Under the pieces are notes generated by a model that did not search any database, was not told the origin of the DNA, and saw nothing but the letters and a program-made list of their open reading frames with translations. 59,607 nt of DNA, taken from Desulfocapsaceae bacterium (GTDB lineage Bacteria > Desulfobacterota > Desulfobulbia > Desulfobulbales > Desulfocapsaceae). Position numbers and translations under genes: made by a program. The stretch spans positions 1-59,607 of the forward strand of contig JARLHL010000057.1 of assembly GCA_031292275.1 (NCBI GenBank). The letters are read 5' to 3'. Positions 3,328 through 49,496 of this stretch are shown in pieces. Positions within the stretch are counted from its first letter, which is position 1, and each line of letters begins with the position of its first letter.

Positions 3328-4701
3328 GTGGCCGTAAAACTCGGCTATAAAAATGTCTCTCGCGACCCCTACGGCTACCCGGAATGGCAGGGAAGAGGCC
3401 TGCCCGTCGAGAGTGCCCCCGCAGGACTGGCTGCACAGACGCAGGAAGGGCCCAAAGCGCCGGGACCGCTGTCCGGCTGGGCGATGATATGGACCCTTCT
3501 GGGAATATTTGCAGGCGGCATGGCCCTCAATCTCACCCCCTGCGTCTATCCGTTGATCCCCATCACAGTCTCCTACTTTGGCGGTCAGGCCACGAAGCAG
3601 GGAGAGGGACGGGGAAGGCTGCTGTTGCACGGTCAGTGCTATATGCTGGGTCTTGCCTTAACCAACTCGCTGCTGGGAGTGGCTGCGTCCCTGACCGGCG
3701 GGCTGATGGGGGGCTTGCTCCAGAACCCCCTGGTTCTTGCGGTCGTGGCCGCGGTCCTTATCTTCTTTGCCGCCAGCCTCTTCGGCTTGTGGGAGATGCG
3801 TCTGCCGAGTGGCCTGACCCAGGCCGCTGCAAAATCCTATACCGGTTACTTCGGCAGCCTCTTCATGGGGCTGACCCTCGGGGTGGTTGCGGCCCCCTGC
3901 ATTGGACCTTTTGTGCTGGGCCTCCTCACCTGGGTTGCAGGCATGGGCAGCCCCTGGCTCGGATTCGTTATCTTTTTTACCCTGAGCCTGGGCCTCGGCC
4001 TGCCGCTCTTCCTTCTTGCCATGTTCTCGGGACAACTGCAAAAGCTTCCCCGTTCAGGGGACTGGATGATCTGGGTGAGAAAACTGATGGGCTGGGTCCT
4101 GGTCGGCATGGCCGCTCATTTCATCCGGCCCCTTCTCCCCGGTTCGGGGGGAACCATCGTGGTTGCCCTGGTCGCCTTGTCCGCCGGGCTTCATCTGGGC
4201 TGGATTGACAGCAGTCGGGCAAACTTCCGAGCCTTTCCCTGGCTGAAGACAGGCGCCGGCACCGCCTGTCTTGTCCTGGCCGCCTTTCTCTTGACATCAC
4301 GGGCAATGCAGGGGCCGGGGGTTAGGTGGAGACCCTATACAGAGGAAACCCTGCAGAAGGCCTGGGACCAGAAAAAGCCTGTCATTATCGATTTCTATGC
4401 CACCTGGTGCACGCCGTGCCGGGAACTTGACGAAGTCACCTTTCATAATGCCGCGGTCGTCAGCCAGGCAGAGCGTGATTTTATCATGGTGAAAGTGGAT
4501 GTAACCAGGGCGGGCAACCCCCTGAACGAACGATTACTGCAGCAGTATGGAATCAAGGGCGTTCCGACCATCGTCTTTCTTGATACGAACGGGGAAGAAC
4601 GGCAGGACCTGCGTCTGGTGGATTATCTCCCCCCCGACCGGTTCCTGAAACAGATGGCCGGAGTCGGAAAGAGCAGGATAAACGACGGAAAGGCGCAATA
4701 A
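3328..4701 (+). CDS. CcdA/DsbD-type transmembrane thiol:disulfide transporter fused to a C-terminal thioredoxin domain. As called it starts inside the rhodanese C-terminal homology region; the real product is probably a rhodanese-CcdA-Trx fusion
   Basis: CcdA/DsbD beta-domain cysteines in TM segments (LNLTPCVYPLIP; AAPCIGPFV). C-terminal Trx with WCTPC (IIDFYATWCTPCREL). The first about 30 codons (VAVKLGYKNVSRDPYGYPEWQGRGLPVE) are a classic rhodanese C-terminus in the same frame as the upstream rhodanese ORF. Confidence 0.7.
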   Translation: MAVKLGYKNVSRDPYGYPEWQGRGLPVESAPAGLAAQTQEGPKAPGPLSGWAMIWTLLGIFAGGMALNLTPCVYPLIPITVSYFGGQATKQGEGRGRLLLHGQCYMLGLALTNSLLGVAASLTGGLMGGLLQNPLVLAVVAAVLIFFAASLFGLWEMRLPSGLTQAAAKSYTGYFGSLFMGLTLGVVAAPCIGPFVLGLLTWVAGMGSPWLGFVIFFTLSLGLGLPLFLLAMFSGQLQKLPRSGDWMIWVRKLMGWVLVGMAAHFIRPLLPGSGGTIVVALVALSAGLHLGWIDSSRANFRAFPWLKTGAGTACLVLAAFLLTSRAMQGPGVRWRPYTEETLQKAWDQKKPVIIDFYATWCTPCRELDEVTFHNAAVVSQAERDFIMVKVDVTRAGNPLNERLLQQYGIKGVPTIVFLDTNGEERQDLRLVDYLPPDRFLKQMAGVGKSRINDGKAQ

Positions 4702-4760
4702 GGAGTAAAGATATGGCGAAGGTGAGATTTTTCCTCAACTTGCCCAACGGCAGGCCATGA

Positions 4761-5033
4761 ATGAATTTTCAGGAGATGATGCCCAGGCTGGGCATGAAGT
4801 ATAAGGGTATCGAGATCGAGGTAATGGCAAAACCCGTTGCAAATTACCAGAATGATGACTATTTCGCCCTGGATCTTCCGGTGGCGCCGGCGATTATGGT
4901 CGGAGAGGAGATTGTGATCGAAGGCGCGAATATCAGCCAGGATAAGGTGGAAAAGGTCATCTGCCGGCACCTGGGGTTACCCGAGCCGGAACCTAAAAAG
5001 AGGGGGATATTGGACTGTCTTTTCGGGCAATGA
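4761..5033 (+). CDS. Small thioredoxin-fold protein, C-terminal half similar to redox-active disulfide protein 2; a possible N-terminal extension begins at ATG 4713 and reads through UGA 4758
   Basis: VAPAIMVGEEIVIEGANISQDKVEKVICRHL resembles the C-terminal beta-alpha of small Trx-fold proteins. AGGAG lies 7 nt upstream of the in-frame ATG at 4713, and the RBS is weak at 4761. Confidence 0.45.
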   Translation: MNFQEMMPRLGMKYKGIEIEVMAKPVANYQNDDYFALDLPVAPAIMVGEEIVIEGANISQDKVEKVICRHLGLPEPEPKKRGILDCLFGQ

Positions 5034-11590: not shown

Positions 11591-11737
11591 TGCAAATATC
11601 TAAAGCTGATATATTTGCATTAATTCAAGATGCCCCATGCGCATCATAGAACTTTCCTAAGCATTCTTTCCGGCTTGTTACCGTCGTTTCCGTATCTGCG
11701 TTCCATAAAACTCGAATTCCGGTCTTGGTTCACGCGC

Positions 11738-14700
11738 ATGCCCTATCCCGATACGCCCTCCACGAAGACAAAGACTCGCCATCAGGCCACAAGTCCCGGC
11801 AGCAACCCTGTGAACATCAGGCCATCGGTCCCGGCAACGGTGGGAATAGGCGCGTCCGCCGGCGGCCACGAGGCCCTGGATCATCTTTTCCAGGCCCTTT
11901 CTCCCGACTGCGAACTCTGCTTCGTCGTCGTCATGCATCTGCCTGCAGACGGTCCATCCCTCCTGGCCGAACTCATTGGACACCAGTCCGCGATGCAGGT
12001 ATTGACCGCAGAAAACGAGATGCCGCTGCACCCGAAAACCATCCATGTGGCTCCACCGGGCATGGACCTGACTGTACGTGGCGGCCGGTTTCACCTGCAC
12101 CCTCGTCAGGATCAGGATATGCCGCATCACCCCATAGATATTTTTTTCAAATCACTTGCCGGGGATCTTGGCCAGAATGCCATCGCCGTGGTGCTCTCCG
12201 GCTTCGGCTCCGACGGCAGTCAGGGGGTCAAATGGATCAAAAAGGAGGGCGGGGTCGTCCTGATACAGGATCCGACGACGGCCATCCATCCCTATATGCC
12301 TCAGAACGCCATCGCCGCCGGGGCCGCCGATCTGATCCTGCCGGCGGCAGAGATCGCCGACAGGCTGACCAAGATCTCGAGGGACCATGGAATCCATGCT
12401 CCGCGCGCCTGTCTGAACATCGCCGCTGATGAGGACCTGACCCCCCTCTTCAATCTCCTGAGAGACCGGACCAGCCACGACTTCAGCTCGTACAAGAGGA
12501 ACACCGTGATCCGACGCATAGAACGCCGAATGACGGTCAAGGCCGCCAAAGAATTCAACAACTACCTGGAAGTCCTTGCAGAGGACCCTCAGGAAGCCCA
12601 CGCTCTCTGTCAGGATCTCCTGGTCGGCGTTACAAGTTTCTTCAGGGACCCCGACGCCTTCGACGTCCTCAACCGCGAGATTCTGCCCTCCCTTTTCGCC
12701 AATCGCGACAGGGAAGAGCCCGTGCGTATCTGGCATGCCTGCTGTGCCACCGGTGAAGAGGCCTACTCTGTAGCCATGCTGATTCTCGAGTACTTCGACG
12801 CCCAGGGCCTGCAGGCCAAAGTGCAGATCTTTGCCACCGATCTCGACGAGACCGCAGTCACCCAGGCCAGGGTCGGAATCTATTCCGATGACATCAAGCG
12901 GGAGGTGAGCCAGGAGCGTCTCCAACGCTTCTTTATCCGCAATGAGGGGCGCTGGCAGGTGAATAGCCGGTTAAGGGAGATGATTGTCTTCGCGACCCAT
13001 AATATCATCAAGGACCCGCCTTTCTCGCATCTTAACCTTCTCGTCTGCCGAAACTTTCTCATCTATCTGAATCCGGACATCCAAAGGCTGCTGCTCCCGC
13101 TTTTTCACCAGGTGCTGGTCCCGGGAGGATACCTCTTCCTGGGGTCAGCCGAGACGGTGGGTCTTCACGACGATCTGTTCAGCGCCGTCAACAAGAAGTG
13201 GAAAATCTTCTCGCGGCAGGGGGGGAAAAGCCGGGCCGAGGCTCTCTTTCCCTTCTCGGGCCCGGTCCGCAAGCTGTCCGACATCGAGCGTTCATACAAG
13301 TCCTCAGAGGCCGACGAGGCAAAGACCCTCGCCGCTGCCGAGAAACTTCTCATGGACCGCTATGTCCCCGCCCGCATAATCATCAACGAGAAGAGCGAGG
13401 TCGTTCATGTCTCACAGCGCGCGGGAGCCTATCTGCTGACCCCGGAAGGAAAACCGACCCAGGATCTCCTGAAAATGGCCCGGGAGGAGTTGCGACCTGC
13501 TCTCAGGGCCGCAATCTACAAGGCTTTTACCACCCAGCAGGAGATCGTCTATCGGGGGATACAGGTCATTACCGAAGGCGCGGAGGAGAGTGTCAATGTT
13601 ATCATACTGCCGTTGAAAGACTGCCCGCCGGCCTGCAAGCTGGCCGCAGTGATCATCGAGCCCGCCCCGCCGGCCCTGGTCCGTCCTCTGCCCCGGGATC
13701 AGGAGGACGGTGGCGACGCCGCCAGGAATTCACTGACTCGACAACTCGAGGAACAGCTGCGGGTGACGGGAGAGCAGCTCCGATCCACCAGCGAACAGCT
13801 GGAGACCTCCAACGAGCGGTTTACGCAGGCCAACGAAGAGCTGATGACGGTAAACGAGGAACTGCAGTCCACTAACGAGGAGCTGCAGTCCACCAACGAG
13901 GAACTGGTCACCGTCAACTCAGAGCTGCAGAGAAAGATGGAGGAACTCAACCAAAGCAACAGCGATATGGAGAACCTCTTCGCCAGCTCCGAGATTGCTG
14001 CCATTTTCCTTGATCGCGGCCTGCACATCAAGCGGTTTTCCCCGGCCATGGCGACAATTTTCAACCTGATTCCGGCTGATACCGGTCGGCCCTTCCGGCA
14101 TCTGAACAGCTCCATAGACTGGTCCTTTCTCCCCATCGACACGACAGCGGTTCTCGAGACCCTCACCCCAGTGGAACGGGAGGTCTGCTCAACGGTCGAT
14201 GGACGAACCTTTATTATGCGGGTCCTGCCCTACAAGACCACCGAAGGCATTGTCGACGGCATTGTCGTCACCCTGGTCGATATCAGCCAGCGTAAACAGG
14301 CAGAGAGGGCCCTGTATGCGACTCAGACAGCCCTGCGCGAAGGGGATGAACGGCTGCGGTTTGTGCTGGAAAGCTGCCACATCGGCGCCTGGGACCTTAA
14401 CTTGGATAACCATACCACCTCCCGCTCGCTGGAGCATGACCGCATCTTCGGTTACCCTGAACCGCTGCCTGCCTGGACACTGGAGATGTTCCTCGAACAT
14501 GTCCTGCCGGAGTACCGCCGGGATGTGAAAGAGATGGTCGCAGCGGCCATGGCGGCCAAGCAAGGATGGGCCTGCGAATGCCGCATCCGGCGGGCGGACG
14601 GTCAGATCCGCTGGATCTGGTTTGCGGGCCGCCATCTCACCGACCTGGCCGGTCACAGCCGGGTTGCAGGGATTATTCAAGATATAACCGACCGAAAAGA

Positions 14701-17473
14701 GGCTGAAGAGGAAAATTCCAGATTATTGAAGATCGTCCAGGAGGAGAAAGACAGACTGGCTGTACTGATCAACAGTATCACCGATGAGGTCTGGTTCGCC
14801 GATACCCAGAAGAAATTCACCCTGGCCAATCCTTCAGCCCTCAAGACATTCGGCTTGGAGGTCATGGGCCAGATTGATATTGAGGCCTTTGCCGCCAGTC
14901 TCGATGTGCTCCGCGCCGACGGAAGCCGGCGTCCCGTCCAGGAAGCCCCTCCTCTGCGCGCCCTGCAGGGCGAGGTGGTGAAGAATGCCGAAGAAGTCAT
15001 CCGCAATCCCGTCACCGGCGAACAACGCTATCGGGAGGTCAGCTCCAATTCGGTCAGAGATGCTCAGGGGAGTATCATAGGCGCCGTCACCGTTGTCAGG
15101 GACATCACCGATCGGAAGCGCGCTGAAGAGGCGCTGCGCAAATCCCGATCCAAGCTGGAGGCGGCCCTGTCCAGTATGACCGATGCGGTCTTCATCTCCG
15201 ATCAGGATGGGCAGTTTATCGAGTTCAACGATGCCTTCGCGACCTTTCACCGATTCAAAAACAAAGACGCCTGCCTGAAAAAATTTGCCAGTTACCCTGA
15301 CATTATCGAGGTTTTTATGGCCGACGGGGAACCCGCCCCCGTAGAGATGTGGGCTGTTCCCCGGGCCCTGCGCGGAGAAACCGTCACCAACACGATATAC
15401 GGCCTCCGGCGCAAGGATACCGGCGAAAGATGGGTCGGCAGCTACTCTTTTGCCCCTATCCGTGACAGCAGGGGAGTCATTTCCGGCTCGGTGGTGGTGG
15501 GACGCGATATCACCGAACTTGTGAAAAATGAAGAGGCCCTCAAGACAAGCGAACAGCTGTACCGCTCCCTCTTCGACAATATGCTCAACGGTTTTGCCTA
15601 CTGCAAAATGATCTACGACAATCACGAACCGTCTGACTTCATCTATCTGAACGTCAATGCGGCCTTCGAGGACCTGACCGGCTTGAAGGATGTGGAGAAC
15701 AAAAAGGTCTCGGAGGTTATCCCGGGCATTCGCCAGTCTGACCCTGAACTCTTCGAGATCTACGGCAGGGTCGCTTCGTCCGGTATTCCTGAACGCTTCG
15801 AAACCTTCGTCCAGGCCCTTGACATGTGGTTCTCAATCTCCGTCTACAGCCCGAAGAAGGAATATTTTGTCGCTATTTTTGATGTGATTACAGAGCGTAA
15901 GCGTGCCGAGGAGGCGCTCATCCTCAGCGAGCATCGACGAAGCCTGGCCCTGGAGGCCTCACATGCGGGGACCTGGGAGTGGAATCTCGCGACCAATGAA
16001 AATATCTGGTCCAATGAATTATGGCACCTCTACGGACTCGAACCCTTCAGCTGCAAACCATCCTACGATGAATGGCTGAAGACAATCCATCACGACGATC
16101 AGGCAAAGGTAGAACAGGCCCTCCGGCAGGCGATCGCCCAGGGTACTGCCTTCAATATCGAATGGAGGGTAGCAAAAACCCAGTGCTGGCTGGCTTCCCA
16201 CGGCCGGGCCTTGAGGGACATCCATGATCATATTGTCAGTTATGTGGGCACCGTTATGGATATCACCGAGCGCAAACTGGCCGAGGAGGAGAAAAAATCT
16301 CTGCAGATGCAGCTTATCCAGCTGCAGAAGATGGAGGCAATCGGCACCCTTGCAGGAGGAATAGCTCATGATTTCAACAATATACTTGGAGCTGTCATCG
16401 GCTTTGCCGAGTTGGCAAGGGATTCGATCCCGATGGATTCTGAGGCCGCAAACGATCTCGACAAGGTCCTGGAGGCGGGTGACCGGGCGACCCACCTTGT
16501 CAAACAGATCCTGGCCTTCAGTCGCCAGGCAAATTCTGAAATGGTTCCGCTGGAGCCTGTCCATCTGGTCAAGGAGACCATCAAACTGCTCCGTCCGGCC
16601 CTGCCTTCGACCATCACAATCAAACTGAATCTGGAAGCGGCAACAAAATTTATCCATGCCGATCCCACCCAGATCCACCAGATCGCGATGAATCTCTGCA
16701 CCAACGCCTTCCACGCCATGGAAAAGACCGGCGGCATCCTCGAAATCGGTCTCATGGACTGTCAGGTCTCCTCTCAGGACCTGCCGCCCCACGCCAAGGT
16801 ACAGGCCGGGAAATTCGTTGTACTTTCCGTTGGCGATACTGGACCGGGAATACCGCCGGAGATACAGACCAAGATTTTTGAACCGTATTTCACCACCAAG
16901 GAAGTCGGCAAAGGCACCGGTATGGGCCTCTCCATCATCTACGGCATTGTCACCACCATGGGCGGTTTCATCACCTGCGAGAGCGAACTGAATAAAGGAT
17001 CGATATTCCGCGTATTTTTCCCAGCAATTGAACCAACCCCCGGTATAGCCATCGACCGTAACGATACTATTTCCTCCGGCGAAGAACATATCCTCTTCAT
17101 CGATGACGAGATCATTCTCGCCGAGATGGGCAAAATCATGCTTGAACGCCTAGGCTATACCGTAACACTTCGGACCAGCAGCCTGGAGGCTTTGGAACTC
17201 TTCAAGACCCAGCCGAATCTGTTTGACGCCGTCGTTACCGACCAGACGATGCCCGGCATGACCGGGATGGACATGGCACAGAGGATGCTGGAAATCCGGC
17301 CGGATATACCCATCATACTCTGTACGGGCTACAGCACTCTGGTCAGCGAAGAACAGGCGAAACTCAATGGAATCAAAGAATTTATCATGAAGCCCATGTC
17401 AAAAAAGGATATTGCCCAGCGGCTGAGGAGCGTACTGGATGGCTCCGCTCAGGAGACCACAGCCCCTACATGA
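11738..17473 (+). CDS. Giant chemotaxis-type signalling fusion: CheB methylesterase + CheR methyltransferase + coiled-coil linker + multiple PAS + HisKA/HATPase_c + REC
   Basis: CheB domain ([16 protein letters not shown]...VVMHL), CheR domain ([11 protein letters not shown]...[17 protein letters not shown]), heptad linker [27 protein letters not shown], at least 4 PAS blocks, the H-box [16 protein letters not shown], HATPase [48 protein letters not shown]...[11 protein letters not shown]. The ORF opens at 11630; the start is assigned to the ATG at 11738 (MPYPD...). Confidence 0.9.
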
Positions 17474-17540
17474 AAGGATCAAACAACGGTTTTTCCCCTC
17501 ATCCCCCGGAACTGTGGCCAGGAGTGTCCGTTTTTGCGCC

Positions 17541-17705
17541 CTACCACCGCCGGTATGAGTAGGGATAATAATACGGGCTATAGTAGTACTGTGGTGCAGA
17601 ATAATATGGATGATAATAATACGGTCTGGGATAATCAACCGGCACCACCACGCACCCGCTGCAGACGAGAATCAGCATCGCAGCTATTAACCAACGAAAT
17701 TTCAT
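17541..17705 (-). CDS. Small secreted peptide with an extreme Tyr/Pro-rich C-terminus
   Basis: AAGGAG 8 nt upstream of the ATG; signal peptide MKFRWLIAAMLILVCSGC. The mature region PVDYPRPYYYHPYYSAPQYYYSPYYYPYSYRRW is about 50% Tyr. Confidence 0.45.
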   Translation of the reverse strand: MKFRWLIAAMLILVCSGCVVVPVDYPRPYYYHPYYSAPQYYYSPYYYPYSYRRW

Positions 17706-17877
17706 TTCTCCATCTCCTTGCCCCAAAAAGGCAATTATCGTAAACCCTATCGATGCAGCCCGCCCCCCGGCCTCAGACAAAAGGGACGAACGGGGATGCC
17801 TTCAAACGGATAATAGGGATGCGGTTGATACAGTCAAGAACAAGATCTTTTTTCATTGAGCCCTTTTTGCAAAAACT

Positions 17878-18219
17878 CTAATAATAGTCCTCACGGCCAT
17901 TGCGATTATTGCGCCGATCCCCGTAATGGTCGCGATGGAAGCAGAGCACCTCATCAGGGATCCTTCCCAGGTAGGGATCTCCCCACGGTCCATGCCCGGA
18001 ATGCGACCTGTGCCAATTGCTCCCATCGTGCCGCCACCAAAATCCGCCATAGAAAAATGGTGCTGCTGCGGCAACCGGTTCGGCGACCGGCACCGGGGCA
18101 GACACTGTCACGGCCACCCCCTGAGAGGCACCGCCTGGATCGACGGTCGCTGACAACACGATTGCCGCAACAATGAAAGAACGCCAGAATCTGCCTTTTT
18201 TACACTGTTTTTTGTTCAT
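17878..18219 (-). CDS. Small secreted Trp/His/Gly-rich protein, unknown function
   Basis: Signal peptide MNKKQCKKGRFWRSFIVAAIVLSA. The mature part is ...FFYGGFWWRHDGSNWHRSHSGHGPWGDPY...HRDHYGDRRNNRNGREDYY. It lies on the same strand between the two other small secreted ORFs. Confidence 0.45.
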   Translation of the reverse strand: MNKKQCKKGRFWRSFIVAAIVLSATVDPGGASQGVAVTVSAPVPVAEPVAAAAPFFYGGFWWRHDGSNWHRSHSGHGPWGDPYLGRIPDEVLCFHRDHYGDRRNNRNGREDYY

Positions 18220-18242
18220 TCCAGGCCACCGTCGCAAGGATG

Positions 18243-18575
18243 TTACCGGCCGATCTGACGACTGACGGCGTTCTCCTGCTGATTAAGCGTCCTCTGCTCC
18301 TGCTTGGTAATATGACCGCCGTCCTGGCTTGCCATATCCCGTTCTTCCTGGCGGATCTGCCGATCTTCATGATGAAGCTTTGCAGCCTGCCCCTGCGTCA
18401 AGGCCCCTTCTCTCACCTTATTATTGATACGATTATTCTGATTTTCCAAACGCTCATTCACCTGCACCCGTCGGGGATGATCCTGCGCCCAGTCATCGGC
18501 AAAACTCTCGGTACGGCCGAAGAAAAAGAGGACTGCCGCCAACATTACAACCATCATTGTGAGCTTTTTATTCAT
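18243..18575 (-). CDS. Periplasmic LTXXQ-motif protein (CpxP/Spy/ZraP-like)
   Basis: Signal peptide MNKKLTMMVVMLAAVLFFFG; Gln/Arg/Glu-rich helical protein with an LTQGQ motif (LTXXQ) and a second TLNQQ. Confidence 0.5.
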   Translation of the reverse strand: MNKKLTMMVVMLAAVLFFFGRTESFADDWAQDHPRRVQVNERLENQNNRINNKVREGALTQGQAAKLHHEDRQIRQEERDMASQDGGHITKQEQRTLNQQENAVSRQIGR

Positions 18576-18876
18576 AGTACGCCTTCCCTTCTTGAGAGGT
18601 ATTGATCGGACGTTTGTCTCCTCACCTCGAGGAAACAGCCTTTGTACTCAAGAAGACGGCAAGCATTGCAGTTTTGTCTACAGAGGATGTAAAAAAAGGG
18701 CAGAAATTCGATCGGACGGCCAAAGGCAGGGGATATCGGCAGATCGTAAGCCTGATTCAAGGACTGCGCCCATGCACCCGGACTCCAGATCACCTTGAAT
18801 ATTATGGAATCACCTCGTAAGGCCGCCTGCTTCCACCCCATTTCTCCAAGATGCCCCTCTCCCGCCCGGTCAAGAG

Positions 18877-19680
18877 CTAACAGATCACGTTCCAGAGCAT
18901 CTTGGTGGCAACCACATAGAGAAAGAGTGCGAAAATGCGTTTTAATTTGTCAACCGGCAGCGCGTGGGCCAGTTTGGCCCCGAGCGGTGCCGTAAGGACA
19001 CTGAAACAAACAATAAACAGCATAGCCGGCAGATAGACATACCCCAGGCTGTAGGGAGGCATACTGGCTGCCCCCGGGTTGTTGACTGCATATCCGACTG
19101 CGCCGGCGATGGCTATGGGAAAGCCGATAGCCGCTGAAGTGCCGATGGCCCGGTGGGCCGCCACATTGCACCACATCATGAAAGGAACGGAAAGGGAACC
19201 GCCGCCGATGCCTACCAGGGCCGAGGCCAGACCAATGGTTGACCCGACACCGAACATGCCGATATTGCCTGGTAATTCTCGAGACGCCTTCGCCTTTTTG
19301 TTGAGCAGCATCTGGGTGGCAACAGAATAGAGAAAGACGCAGAAAAAGGCCTTGAGGAAACCGGTGGAAAGCCGTGAGGCGACCATGGTACCCAAAAATG
19401 TACCGATCAGGATGCCGGGAATAAGACGTTTCACGATGGCCCAATCAACCGCGCCGCGCCGATGATGCGACATGAAACTGGAGATTGAGGTGAAAATGAT
19501 ACAGGCAAGGGAAGTCCCCAGGGCCATATGCATAATCAGACCCGAAGGTATCCCCTGTTTGGTAAAACAGAAGATCAGCATTGGTACAATGACCAGACCA
19601 CCTCCCACTCCCAACAGACCGGCGAGCAAGCCGGAAATTAAGCCAACAGCGAAATACATCATAGGAATTTCAAAAGACAT
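18877..19680 (-). CDS. TauE/SafE-family (DUF81) anion exporter
   Basis: Two internally repeated 4-TM halves with the family signatures GLLAGLLGVGGGLVIVPML and GIGGGSLSVPFMM. RBS GAGGG upstream of the ATG at 19680; the ORF track's longer start is at 19704. Confidence 0.85.
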   Translation of the reverse strand: MSFEIPMMYFAVGLISGLLAGLLGVGGGLVIVPMLIFCFTKQGIPSGLIMHMALGTSLACIIFTSISSFMSHHRRGAVDWAIVKRLIPGILIGTFLGTMVASRLSTGFLKAFFCVFLYSVATQMLLNKKAKASRELPGNIGMFGVGSTIGLASALVGIGGGSLSVPFMMWCNVAAHRAIGTSAAIGFPIAIAGAVGYAVNNPGAASMPPYSLGYVYLPAMLFIVCFSVLTAPLGAKLAHALPVDKLKRIFALFLYVVATKMLWNVIC

Positions 19681-20216
19681 CTTACCCTCTATTGTTCGAG
19701 ACACCGTCTTAAACGAGCGCTTGTGATCCTCAAAATGTCAAAAATTATTTTAGCATGTATTGCCCGTAAAGATTGGAAGGACATGCATTGCGACCGCTCC
19801 TGCCCGCTGGCCATTGGTTTTTCACTTACGGGAAAAACCGTTCTGTGAAATTCTATGCAATCTAAACAGTTAGATGACAATTACAGCAGAAATTGTCAAG
19901 ACATTTTTGCAGGCCAGCGGGGGGAATCCCGATCCTTCCGCTGCTCAGGCTCACCGCAGTCGCGAGGAGCAGAAGGGAGGTCAGTCTGAAAACATGCTAT
20001 CTCATATTTTTTCAAATATCAGGGGAAGCGACAGCCCTTCATCCAACAAGAGAAATAAATTTTGTTGGAGTCTTCCTCTCAACCGTGATATCTTTTCTTC
20101 CGGTTAATATGGTCCCTGCTGTTTCTTTTTTTCAGCAAAAAAGGCCGGGGAGGATCTTATGACGTTCAACTCTTTCAAAATATTACATGGAATATATCAG
20201 GGCTGGAGAACATATC

Positions 20217-20489
20217 ATGAACAAGTTATGCGTGCTTTGCGTTTGTGTTGCTATTGCGATGAGCGTAACCGGGTGCAGCAAGACCACGGTCAACCCCAAC
20301 TACACGTCGGCAAATCCTGATTTGATGCGAATAGGTGGTGAATCGCCGGAAACCAAAGAACCGGAGATCATTAATATGGGATCCTACTGTCTTCGTGTTG
20401 TCGATAAATGGAAACTCGACGGCAGGACGCCGGATGGTCAGACGATCTGGTCCAAGGATACGTTTCGCAATGTTATCCCCTGTCGGTAA
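20217..20489 (+). CDS. Small lipoprotein, unknown function
   Basis: MNKLCVLCVCVAIAMSVTGC shows a lipobox (VTGC); 90 aa; first gene of the AT-richer block. Confidence 0.45.
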   Translation: MNKLCVLCVCVAIAMSVTGCSKTTVNPNYTSANPDLMRIGGESPETKEPEIINMGSYCLRVVDKWKLDGRTPDGQTIWSKDTFRNVIPCR

Positions 20490-20916
20490 AACCGATTGCC
20501 GGGAAAGGATCTCCGGCATTGATCCATTGAGGAGATGTTTTGAGGCAATACGGTACTCTCTCATGACGGCATCGGTCTTCCTTCCCTCCCGCCACGTACG
20601 CAATTTACCTCGGAACCGCGATATTGGGATATAATCTGTCCTGGCGGTTGCCGAAGGCAAGTACTCCAGGAACCGAGCACGCAACACTGTTTTCACGATG
20701 ATCAATGTCAGAAAATAATACAGCCCGTATCGGGATCAATTACATGAATGTTCCCCGGGAATTGGGGGAGCGCCGGACCAAAGAGACGCCTTTCCCTATT
20801 TCGTTGCGGCAGATCGGTTTGGTTGCACCATGCTGGTTTATGGAAAGTTTCATGCATTCACACCTGTATCAGCAGTAACGAACCTGTTATTTATGCCATC
20901 ATAAAAGGAGATGACT

Positions 20917-22722: not shown

Positions 22723-24420
22723 TTGAATAAAAAGAGATACTTCATGCATCGCTATTTTCACATCAGCACTGTCTTCTTTTTCCTCAGCATCTGCTTTGCG
22801 CAAGCCTCTTTTTCATCAGATGCATATATCAAAGTCGATGATAACGAACTCGGCCAGGGCATACTGCGTCAACGGGGCATTGAATGTCTACTCATAACTC
22901 CTGCCCATGTTGTTGAAAACGCTTTAAAAGTCGACGTGACCGTGGCCGACAAGACAAAATATCCGGCAGAAATTATGGAATTATTTCCGGGTGATATCAG
23001 CGTGCTGCGGATCAAGGGCGATGAGTCGTCTCCGTGCAGCCATGCAAGCTGGTCTAACACGAGCAATTTAAACGCCCTGCTGGAAAAGGAAAATCAGGGC
23101 GAACTGCGAACCATGCTCGCTGACGGAAGTATCCGCATAACTCCCGTTGATATTGTCGGCTATGATAAATACCGAAACATTAATGTCCGCCCGACCCATC
23201 AATCGGATGCAATTTTGAAAGGTGAGAGCGGGAGCCTCCTGTATATTGCCGGTCAGCTTTCCGGGATGCTTCTTTCCGTGAAAGACGGCATTGGCAATGT
23301 TATTCGTCAGGACGTGCTGGCCAATACCCTTGCCTTGTTTTTTGAAGATTCTCATCAGGCGGATAGACAGGGCGCGCATCAGCCGAATAGCAAAACCACC
23401 GCAAATCCTCCGGCTCAAGAAACAGCCCTGACCGGTCAACCAGGAATTTCCGGTATCATTGCCGAAGGCGCAGGAGTCGAATATCCCGTCACCTTGCAGG
23501 AGAACAGTCCCGTCCGCCTGAGGTTTTCGGCCACAGGGGATACCGAGAGATACAGTGTCGAAATATGGGATTCAAAGCATAAGGCAGTCTATCGAAATCC
23601 GGGCAAAAATTATTCAGGGACAGAATCCGTCAGTATCCCCTTTACACCGCCTCGAAATGATACCTACACGCTGCACATTACGGGTACTCAAGGCGAAGGG
23701 AAGTACGCAGTCGAGATTCAAACGATAGCCTTGGATTCTCAATTGCGCAGTCCGAAAAATATTATCCGGATTGGAGAAAATGCAACTGAGGGTATACTTG
23801 CCCAGGGCGCCGTTGCCGAGTACCAGGTCAGGCTGGAGGAAAACAGCCCCGTCCGTCTGGAATTCCCGGCCACAGGAGATACGGGGAAATACAATGTCGA
23901 AATATGGGACTCGAAGAAACAAGCAGTCTATCGGGATCCGGGTAAAAATTATTCCGGGACAGACTCCGTCAATATTCCCTTTACGCCACATCAAGATGAT
24001 ACCTATACACTGCGTATTATCGGGACTGAAGGAGAAGTGAAGTATACCGTCAGGATAGCATCGATTGCCCTGAACGCTCAATTGCGAGGCGATGCAAATA
24101 TTATCCAGATTGGAGGCAATTCCGTTGAAGGCGTACTTGCTCAGGGCGCTGTCGCAGAGTACCGGCTTGAGCTGGCGGCATACACCCCGGTCCGTCTGAA
24201 CTTTTCCGCAACAGGGGACAACGGGAAATACAATGTTGAAGTATTTGATTCAAATGGGAATATTGTATACCGGGATCCCTACAAACGGTATAGCGGCACC
24301 GAGGCGGCCATGCTCCCGCTCACTGTATCCAAAAACGATACCTATTTAATACGCCTCAAAGGAATTGAAGGGGAATGCAAATTTTCGCTGAATATTATGC
24401 GGGCGCCGGGGAAATCGTAG
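22723..24420 (+). CDS. Secreted trypsin-like serine peptidase with three C-terminal PPC (pre-peptidase C-terminal) domains
   Basis: Signal peptide. A chymotrypsin-fold catalytic His context LLITPAHVV and Ser context KGESGSLLY. Three repeats of about 113 aa (ENSPVRL.F.ATGD..KYNVEIWDS...YR.P...YSGT.S..IPFT....DTYTL.I.G..GE.KY.V.I) match the PPC-domain pattern. Confidence 0.75.
   Translation: MNKKRYFMHRYFHISTVFFFLSICFAQASFSSDAYIKVDDNELGQGILRQRGIECLLITPAHVVENALKVDVTVADKTKYPAEIMELFPGDISVLRIKGDESSPCSHASWSNTSNLNALLEKENQGELRTMLADGSIRITPVDIVGYDKYRNINVRPTHQSDAILKGESGSLLYIAGQLSGMLLSVKDGIGNVIRQDVLANTLALFFEDSHQADRQGAHQPNSKTTANPPAQETALTGQPGISGIIAEGAGVEYPVTLQENSPVRLRFSATGDTERYSVEIWDSKHKAVYRNPGKNYSGTESVSIPFTPPRNDTYTLHITGTQGEGKYAVEIQTIALDSQLRSPKNIIRIGENATEGILAQGAVAEYQVRLEENSPVRLEFPATGDTGKYNVEIWDSKKQAVYRDPGKNYSGTDSVNIPFTPHQDDTYTLRIIGTEGEVKYTVRIASIALNAQLRGDANIIQIGGNSVEGVLAQGAVAEYRLELAAYTPVRLNFSATGDNGKYNVEVFDSNGNIVYRDPYKRYSGTEAAMLPLTVSKNDTYLIRLKGIEGECKFSLNIMRAPGKS
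23455..24405 (+). repeat. Three tandem repeats of about 339 bp each (the in-frame PPC-domain repeats inside the protease gene)
   Basis: The repeat units begin near 23455, 23794 and 24133, which is a 339-bp period. Protein-level identity between units is high. Confidence 0.7.
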
Positions 24421-48612: not shown

Positions 48613-49012
48613 ACAGAAATCCTTTGTTGGAACCTGAGGGCACATGAGACTATTTCTCAACGGCTCCGTGCTGCAGGAAACCAGGCATTTGATTGACAAC
48701 AATCAGTTAGGTTCTAGAAATCCAGACTTTCACAAAAGGAACCGCAACAGAGGGGGTGGACACTTCACAAAGCGTCTAAACTCACTCCATTTCAGCGGAG
48801 ACTAATGAGAAAGAGTTGCCAGAATCAGGGCAGACAGAAGAAAGAGTAATGACAAAACAGTTGCCGGGCTGGCCTGCAGCGATACTCTCTCTATGGGTTG
48901 GACGCGGTGGGGATATCGTTGGGTGGTAAATTTGATAGGCTGCATTAGGTTCACCTCAATAATGTGAAATTCATTAAGGGCACAGCCTGCCGAGATCTTC
49001 GGCTCAGACCAT

Positions 49013-49043
49013 TGCCCTTCCAAATGCCTACGAGGTTAGCTGA
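49013..49043 (+). promoter_or_regulatory. Conserved 31-nt motif upstream of the KdpE-like regulator (copy 2)
   Basis: TGCCCTTCCAAATGCCTACGAGGTTAGCTGA; identical to copy 1 at about 27 of 31 positions. Confidence 0.35.
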
Positions 49044-49496
49044 CGGGCTCGGGCTTGGAAGTGCCCTATCCTAAAGTTCAGGAATACGCCCCAAAAAATG
49101 GGTCCCCCGCATCCGCTGCGGAAGCGGATCTCGGCTACAATTTATGGGTAGCACGATAACCCCATTCGAAACTTATTGCCAATATATATTTTTCGAAAAA
49201 AAGAACACTTAGGTAAATTGCAAATAATTACAAAGTTCTAATAAGCTCTAAAATCAAAGCTGCCTCTTAGCGTATTTGCCGGGCATTACCCCTGAACGAT
49301 CCTATCTTGATGATATCAAGACACCTTTTGCCTCATTATTGACTCTATCTTTATGTGATCATGTGTATAAATAGAATGAGATAATACTGATCGTCAGACA
49401 TGGGGCAAAATCAGGGCATAAAACCATTTGGGCAGAGGTGTTCCGGCTAACGTGAGACTGCCCCTCAAGGGCATGCCCAGCACGGAGGGACTTATG

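Follow-up and report, generated by a model that had tools for sequence, protein, structure and literature searches.

Extracytoplasmic function (ECF) sigma factors act at promoters with an AAC-like -35 element and a CGT -10 element, and ECF sigma operons are usually autoregulated via a promoter upstream of the sigma gene. Modules of the CnrYXH type combine such a sigma factor with a membrane anti-sigma factor and a periplasmic sensor of the Metal_resist family. In Pseudomonas aeruginosa, the C-terminal WVF of the small envelope protein MucE activates both AlgW, a protease, and AlgU, an ECF sigma factor, while Asr, SilE/PcoE and SmbP exemplify periplasmic stress or metal proteins that are of low complexity or rich in histidine. 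Here we analyze three consecutive small genes, p1, p2 and p3, on the minus strand (positions 17541-18575) of a 59.6-kb contig from a metagenome-assembled genome (MAG) of the Desulfocapsaceae; the whole contig is referred to below as the window. The locus is predicted to encode three real, envelope-targeted small proteins. We judge it about evenly balanced whether p1 and p2 are envelope-stress genes under the control of an ECF sigma factor, with p3 a separate gene for a tyrosine-rich lipopeptide. What is new is modest: a putative first regulatory clue for a common but unannotated protein family, that of p1, plus two near-orphan low-complexity peptides.

The locus comprises the following features, where ORF stands for open reading frame:

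18243-18575, minus strand: p1, a 110-aa ORF, predicted to be exported, with a signal peptide at about residues 1-26 followed by a mature three-helix domain
17878-18219, minus strand: p2, a 113-aa ORF counted from an ATG; a TTG six codons upstream is a possible alternative start
17541-17705, minus strand: p3, a 54-aa ORF from an ATG, probably a lipoprotein
17713-17719, minus strand: Shine-Dalgarno sequence AAGGAGA of p3, read from the sequence, at -14 to -8 and 8 nt from the ATG
17810-17837, minus strand: sigma-70-like promoter candidate TTGACT-16-TATTAT (10/12), a consensus match only
18654-18708 (core 18655-18681), minus strand: upstream block with the ECF-type promoter candidate TGTAGAC-N17-CGTCT, p1 starting about 80 nt downstream

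p2 begins 23 nt past the p1 stop codon, and the gap between p2 and p3 is 172 nt, within which the sigma-70-like site lies about 100 nt upstream of p3. Signal peptides and the lipobox were assigned by eye (a slash marks the presumed cleavage site): all three proteins have a basic n-region and a hydrophobic core of 10-15 residues, followed by small residues (MNKK, 15 hydrophobic residues and SFA/DD in p1; a very basic n-region, SFIVAAIVLSATV and GGA/SQ in p2; MKFR, WLIAAMLILV and the lipobox-like CSG/C in p3). Mature p1 is composed of 15% Q, 13% R, 10% N and 10% E, the C-terminal 60 residues of p2 of 15% G, 13% R, 10% H and 10% D with four tryptophans, and mature p3 of 38% tyrosine, its 30-residue tail containing 14 tyrosines (47%) and six prolines (20%) and ending in RRW. 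These coordinates and compositions agree with an earlier note on this DNA, which had described three consecutive minus-strand ORFs with signal-peptide-like N-termini and extreme compositions and had credited the smallest with a textbook ribosome-binding site, as the AAGGAGA of p3 bears out. Scans of p1, p2 and p3 against Pfam and NCBIfam returned no family match at E<=10, and no Rfam element was found in 17300-19000. An independent assembly (L001, SRR23300978) differs from the locus by one mismatch in 5664 nt, so the locus is not an assembly artefact; that assembly represents the same strain and carries no evolutionary information.

Judging from its homologues, p1 belongs to a very widespread and strongly conserved family that is so far unnamed. 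The homologues fall into 2147 clusters at 90% identity (58-79% identity to p1, E 1e-34 to 1e-59), none of which has a precomputed Pfam domain and which RefSeq labels 'hypothetical protein'; in a species-representative collection with one genome per species, 402 matches were confirmed by tblastn. The family extends across Proteobacteria, Nitrospirota, Desulfobacterota, Myxococcota and Verrucomicrobiota, with carriers that include Ralstonia, Pseudomonas, Dyella and Sulfuricella as well as MAGs of Nitrospirota, Geobacteraceae, Syntrophaceae, Myxococcota and Verrucomicrobiota, and many of the MAGs come from peat, bog and humic-lake samples. In alignments the N-terminal 25 residues are variable and hydrophobic, and the mature part contains 25-30 invariant, mostly polar residues, with the pattern W..HPRR.QVN.RL.NQ..RI ... 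LNQQEN.VS..IG. p1 aligns over its full length and shares the invariant positions H33, R35, R36, V39, N40, R42, L43, R49, I50 and G57, as well as L67, M81, Q84, T90, E93, L97, Q100, E101, N102 and I108; its histidines H33, H68 and H88 are invariant or near-invariant across the family. An AlphaFold2 (AF2) model built from 105 sequences places helices at residues 34-56, 61-84 and 91-109, with a predicted local distance difference test score (pLDDT) of 81-92 in the mature part, and Foldseek comparison of this model returned nothing at E<=1, only generic bundles. p1 is accordingly modelled as a Sec-exported, periplasmic three-helix protein of about 84 residues.

Two members of the family, P0002 (158 aa) and P0005 (185 aa; L102, 3001-3558), carry the mature domain of p1 twice in tandem within one polypeptide. 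Other homologues lie on plasmids beside recombinase or integrase genes, in Sulfuriferula nivalis (L096) and Cupriavidus basilensis (L097); the annotation of plasmid contexts gave no further clue, the protein itself being labelled 'hypothetical protein'. The location of plasmid homologues beside recombinases, together with about 60% identity across phyla, suggests that the family has spread horizontally.

The closest relatives of p1 (P0004, P0006 and P0007; 73%, 72% and 68% identity, respectively) share a distinctive gene context: each is encoded by the last of four genes, the first three specifying, in this order, a 208-aa ECF sigma factor (89.9 bits with TIGR02937), a 166-aa ZAS-like protein and a 161-aa Metal_resist protein (PF13801; 36.1 bits, gathering score 29.2). 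The 166-aa protein appears anti-sigma-like because it combines an HxxxCxxC motif with one membrane helix. In the 301-nt region upstream of p1, a 56-nt block (18654-18708) aligns with the regions upstream of the ECF sigma genes in L098-L101, with TTTTTACA, TGTAGACAA, CGTCT and AGTA as its invariant parts, and its local alignment score of 48 stands against 17 +/- 2.3 for shuffled sequences (z ~13.8). A search of the window for GTAGAC-N16-18-CGTC yielded a single match, the one upstream of p1, where 0.1 were expected. By its sequence, the block is an ECF-type promoter candidate homologous to the upstream region of the relatives' sigma gene, and by analogy with other ECF operons the block in front of that sigma gene would be the sigma factor's own promoter. 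Because the p1 block is homologous to a sigma upstream region, and because ECF operons are usually autoregulated, we infer that p1 is transcribed by an orthologous ECF sigma factor and p2 is co-transcribed with it. The idea of an envelope-stress or metal role, first put forward in the earlier note, gains contextual support from the sigma, anti-sigma and Metal_resist genes that precede the relatives of p1 and from the promoter block upstream of p1 itself.

In the stretch that separates the Metal_resist gene from the p1 homologue, L098 (2380-2460) and L100 (1990-2060) also contain two conserved hairpin-like elements, CCAGAGG...CCTCTG and CCAGGGG...CCTCTGG, followed by GGAAATNTATTTCC; these could represent a terminator, an attenuator or an operator.

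That an ECF-controlled neighbour of p1 relatives is truly of the Metal_resist/LTXXQ type speaks for the view, taken in the earlier note, that p1 is itself an LTXXQ protein, that is, a periplasmic chaperone or stress modulator of the CpxP/Spy/ZraP family. p1 is indeed small, helical, exported and rich in Q, R and E, and the [LI]TxxQ pattern occurs in it twice where helices begin (LTQGQ at 58-62 for helix 2, ITKQEQ at 89-94 for helix 3; family consensus EITKGQ and HITKQEQ), though as a pattern match only. Comparisons with the family models, sequences and structures were negative, however. p1 did not match PF07813 or PF13801 at E<=10, nor any NCBIfam model, whereas the same method detects PF13801 in the neighbour of its relatives; an hmmsearch of the Protein Data Bank (PDB) with a p1 profile of 105 sequences found no Spy, CpxP or ZraP chain at E<=10; and hhalign assigned probabilities of 1.6% to Spy and 0.5% to CpxP (both sequences entered by hand), the alignment being confined to the signal peptide or to a motif of 16 residues. 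The predicted fold, moreover, is a generic three-helix bundle that matches neither Spy, CpxP nor ZraP and lacks the hooked alpha-hairpin cradle. We give membership of p1 in this family very little credence.

p2, annotated in the NCBI record as the hypothetical protein P4L42_10030, consists of a signal peptide, an Ala/Val/Pro linker and a Trp/Gly/His/Arg-rich C-terminal half (FFYGGFWWRHDGSNWHRS...). Among all ORFs of 80 loci with p1 homologues, its best matches, and its only detectable relatives, are two 216-aa exported proteins encoded in MAGs of uncultured 'delta proteobacterium' (L033 and L071), where the p2-like gene starts 58 nt after the p1 homologue. p2 and these proteins share the pattern ...AP...FF[YW].GFWWR...G.W[YH]RS...W..Y...[IV]P...V...R.HY. 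Since the pair recurs in L033 and L071 amid flanks unrelated to those in the window, p1 and the p2-like gene appear to travel together. In a single-sequence AF2 model of p2, confidence is moderate (block means 67-74) only at residues ~55-72, which form short strands resembling a beta-hairpin, and low in the remainder, which is compatible with disorder outside this segment. Against a plasmid collection, tblastn with p2 and p3 found nothing significant.

p3 (P4L42_10025, likewise annotated as a hypothetical protein) comprises a signal peptide, the CSG/C site, a VVVP segment and the 30-residue Tyr/Pro tail. When 1.84 billion representatives were scanned in full with HMMER, p3 returned itself and P0124, a 52-aa protein (MKLLKLAAALSALVLSGCVVVPLHHYRPHGYYYHGPGWHDGGNYYQHPRRRW) that is 48% identical over its full length (E 5e-4); a second protein of p3-like architecture, P0122 (66 aa; ...LSGCVVSPAPAYVAPRPYYYRPYYYHPYFYHPYYYGHGYYGWGRHW), emerged from a k-mer search at E 0.7, on a contig too short to judge whether p1 or p2 is nearby. 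The three share a signal peptide, SGC, VV.P, RP.YYY, a Tyr/His/Pro/Gly-rich tail and a C-terminal Trp. The lipobox of p3, V-C-S-G-C, fits at -1 (G) and -2 (S) and is non-canonical at -3 (Cys), whereas P0124, P0122 and a 76-aa protein of L054 (described below) have a canonical LSGC.

That p3 is a spurious ORF, lying by chance between p2 and the convergent histidine-kinase gene, seems to us quite improbable. Its non-canonical lipobox, the lack of an intrinsic terminator 3' of the gene, the lack of positional conservation at ~90 loci with p1 homologues, a k-mer search that found only p3 itself besides P0122, and the fact that its only close relative sequence comes from the same strain would all fit such an origin. 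Yet p3 starts with an ATG behind a strong, ideally spaced Shine-Dalgarno sequence, its signal peptide has all of the n, h and c regions, and the NCBI record calls it as a coding sequence; it also shares the SGC-VV.P-RP.YYY...W-end arrangement with P0122 and, in a full-length match, with P0124. Its tyrosine density is also an outlier: it has 14 in a 30-residue stretch, a count that does not exceed 7 in any of the 446 further ORFs of 40 aa or more in the window, where tyrosine makes up 2.2% of the long ORFs; no DNA tandem repeat underlies the tract. We therefore regard p3 as very probably a real, nearly orphan small lipoprotein gene. The earlier note had made conservation in related genomes the crucial check on the Tyr-rich ORF: distant relatives exist in P0124 and P0122, while conservation by position was found nowhere. 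Its statement that such Tyr-rich peptides are not a described family agrees with the absence of any Pfam or NCBIfam match to p3, and a literature search for Tyr-rich small lipoproteins found nothing relevant.

Two other roles for p3 were considered and rejected: a leader peptide or attenuator based on the Tyr run, given the presence of a signal peptide and the absence of a downstream same-strand gene, and a precursor of a ribosomally synthesized and post-translationally modified peptide, given that no modifying enzyme is encoded nearby and that the N-terminus is a signal peptide with lipobox. A metagenome scan with the p3/P0122 patterns RPYYY[HR]PY and Y[YF]Y[SH]PYYY gave at least 600 matches; confirmed among the matches listed were four long proteins, unrelated to p3, in which HRPYYYHPY lies ahead of a membrane helix. 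Long proteins in L092-L095 (e.g. L093, 2443-3423), which we guess to be Bacteroidota-like because of their composition, share RPPYRYGG.GYYCHRPYYYHPY.PFYWGPYYHPWG right before a membrane helix; they form an unrelated family in which a p3-like Tyr/Pro motif is reused.

The surroundings of p1 homologues were examined for further proteins of this kind. Exported-looking ORFs with at least 13% Tyr+Trp+His accounted for 10 of 73 within 500 bp of a p1 homologue, against 9 of 399 (80 loci; Fisher p = 1e-4), in a test that used a home-made signal-peptide heuristic and included partly related loci (L033/L071, L043/L080 and L059/L068). Examples within 500 bp are found in L014, L033, L043, L054, L071, L077 and L080, and several of the hits counted as far lie only 1.2-1.6 kb from the p1 homologues, in L059, L068, L077 and L080. 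They include an 82-aa His-rich helical protein (L014), 151-aa His-rich proteins (L043 and L080, the latter also encoding a 139-aa His-rich protein), an 89-aa Trp/Gly/His lipoprotein and a 105-aa Arg/Gly/His-rich protein (L077), and Trp/Tyr/Pro-rich proteins (L059 and L068); ten of these odd-composition neighbours had no Pfam or NCBIfam match. In L054, from a Methylophilaceae MAG, a p1 homologue is followed within 4001-4938 by a 76-aa Tyr/Pro/Trp/His lipoprotein (4379-4609) and a 65-aa exported poly-His peptide (4741-4938). This last peptide carries KHKHHHHHH and looks Asr-like, and the L054 trio is analogous to that of the window.

Several results weigh against ECF control of a p1-p2 unit. No ECF sigma, anti-sigma or Metal_resist homologue was found within the window. 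The promoter motif was not found upstream of the ~80 other p1 homologues examined, whose gene contexts vary and show no recurrent partner, and for these reasons the ECF link appears limited to one clade. The sole match to p2 in a k-mer-seeded search of 5.8 billion proteins was p2 itself, and p2 is 25% identical to the L033 protein, with an E of 3e-5 that refers to a small ORF set. p3 was found beside no p1 homologue at the ~90 loci, and the gene for P0124 is flanked by those for an MlrC-family protein and a malic enzyme, with neither p1 nor p2 nearby. The heuristic and the related loci of the neighbour test, noted above, count on the same side.

These points would sit well with three unrelated neighbours, p1 being a stand-alone accessory and p2 and p3 independent orphans with no joint function, an explanation that we consider possible but doubtful. 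The trio p1-p2-p3 as such was not found in any other locus, and the co-occurrence across genomes that the earlier note had proposed as a check thus shows no conserved three-gene unit. p1 homologues mostly stand alone in contexts that vary and that include the plasmids with recombinases, and Pfam searches of 20 same-strand neighbours revealed no recurrent family, only scattered DUF1800, SBP_bac_3, ParD_like and MAPEG. p3, for its part, follows a gap of 172 nt that holds a promoter-like site of its own, and the p3-like P0124 stands alone. Chance adjacency accounts less readily for the 23-nt spacing of p1 and p2, the recurrence of a p1 homologue with a p2-like gene in L033 and L071, the enrichment of odd-composition exported proteins beside p1 homologues, and the analogous trio of L054.

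The composition of these proteins also raises the question of buffering. p2 and p3, and possibly p1, might serve as periplasmic metal or proton buffers through His, Tyr, Asp and Glu, as SmbP, SilE/PcoE and Asr do. The C-terminal half of p2, with 10% His and 10% Asp, would suit such a function, as would the three conserved histidines of p1, the Metal_resist-family protein that its relatives follow under an ECF sigma factor, and the poly-His or His-rich helical exported proteins beside p1 homologues in L054, L014 and L080. p3, however, has one histidine, and tyrosine binds most metals poorly; the Pfam and NCBIfam scans of p1-p3 and Pfam searches of the neighbours yielded no metal-binding family, and the genes next to the trio in the window include none for metal transport or resistance. 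Such a buffering role is, in our estimation, unlikely.

Under the reading that we prefer, p1 and p2 would share a transcript and belong to a response that an ECF sigma factor controls and that envelope stress, perhaps caused by metals, calls forth; both would work in the periplasm. p1 would be folded, would bind or protect other molecules and would have a polar surface of unusual conservation, and p2 would be its largely disordered, Trp/His/Arg/Gly-rich partner or buffer. p3 would be a separately transcribed small lipoprotein whose Tyr/Pro-rich tail is tethered to the membrane and faces the periplasm; it would be one of a loosely defined group of low-complexity envelope peptides, each specific to its lineage, and no component of a conserved system of three genes. 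The evidence is compatible with metal buffering, with chaperone-like protection and with MucE-like signalling to an anti-sigma protease. A bolder version, which we put forward as a speculation with little chance of being right, makes the p1 family the conserved folded core of an unrecognised periplasmic protection module, accompanied by fast-evolving, disordered exported partners rich in aromatic residues, His and Arg (p2, p3 and analogues in at least ten other genomes of several phyla) and switched on in one clade by a CnrX/Spy-associated ECF sigma factor; p3, with its terminal Trp, could then be a MucE-like trigger of that sigma factor.

If the preferred reading is true, the family of p1 gains its first functional handle, as a member of an ECF sigma envelope-stress regulon beside a CnrX/Spy-type protein. 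This matters for a family whose more than 2,100 clusters span hundreds of species, among them Ralstonia, Burkholderia and Pseudomonas as well as many MAGs from peat and bog, and for which neither Pfam nor NCBIfam has a model. The locus also adds tiny, compositionally extreme envelope peptides (47% Tyr) of a kind largely missed by gene callers and homology searches. Current understanding is not overturned, and the Tyr-rich p3 is a curiosity until its expression is shown.

Elsewhere in the window, a 1947-aa ORF (11630-17473, plus strand) converges on p3; by eye, its N-terminus looks like a CheB-like methylesterase fused to a CheR-like methyltransferase, with coiled-coil and multiple PAS-like segments next and a histidine kinase plus receiver after them. 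On the other side, a gap of about 1.2 kb with lower G+C (0.42-0.46) and without a convincing ORF (19705-20910) separates a TauE-family gene (18877-19704, minus strand) from the next long ORF. A 565-aa exported protein (22723-24420, plus strand) contains three near-identical repeats of ~100 aa (...GAVAEY.V.LEENSPVRL.F.ATGDTGKYNVEIWDSK...YTL.I.GTEGE.KY.V.I). Far from the trio, at 49010-49146 on the minus strand, lies a full-length cyclic di-AMP (c-di-AMP) riboswitch that scores 93.8 bits with RF00379 (gathering score 38).

Compared with described systems, the three genes resemble several and coincide with none. Proteins with WXXGXW or YXWGXW repeats correspond to Pfam PF12779; p2 (FFYGGFWWRHDGSNWHRS) and the L033/L071 proteins (FFWNGFWWRPWEGRWYRS) resemble such aromatic-Gly-aromatic hairpin repeats, and AF2 places short strands there, but p2 has a single copy rather than a repeat array and no Pfam or NCBIfam match at E<=10. 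With Spy, CpxP and ZraP, p1 has in common that it is small, exported, all-helical and rich in Q, R and E, with two [LI]TxxQ motifs at helix starts, a link to an envelope-stress regulator and relatives beside a true PF13801 protein. It differs in showing neither sequence-profile nor profile-profile similarity, in its predicted three-helix bundle in place of a hooked-hairpin cradle, and in being far more conserved across phyla, at ~60% identity.

Like Asr, SilE/PcoE and SmbP, p2 and p3 are small, compositionally extreme and, by prediction, exported, probably disordered and stress-associated, and the L054 poly-His peptide and the L014 His-rich helical protein look of this class; p2 and p3 have no HMM (hidden Markov model) match, however, p2 being rich in Trp/Gly/Arg as well as His and p3 a predicted Tyr/Pro-rich lipoprotein. 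MucE offers a parallel for p3, P0124 and P0122, which are small, predicted to be envelope-targeted and end in an aromatic residue, Trp, with p3 close to genes that have an ECF-type promoter candidate; sequence similarity to MucE is absent, the p3 tail is 47% Tyr, and the anti-sigma protein of the relatives is ZAS-like. From CnrYXH the locus departs in that the order of genes is another, the window has no sigma, anti-sigma or sensor gene, and p1 has no counterpart in Cnr; what connects the two is that the relatives of p1 follow a cluster of sigma factor, ZAS-like anti-sigma factor and PF13801 protein, and that p1 carries the matching -35/-10 block.

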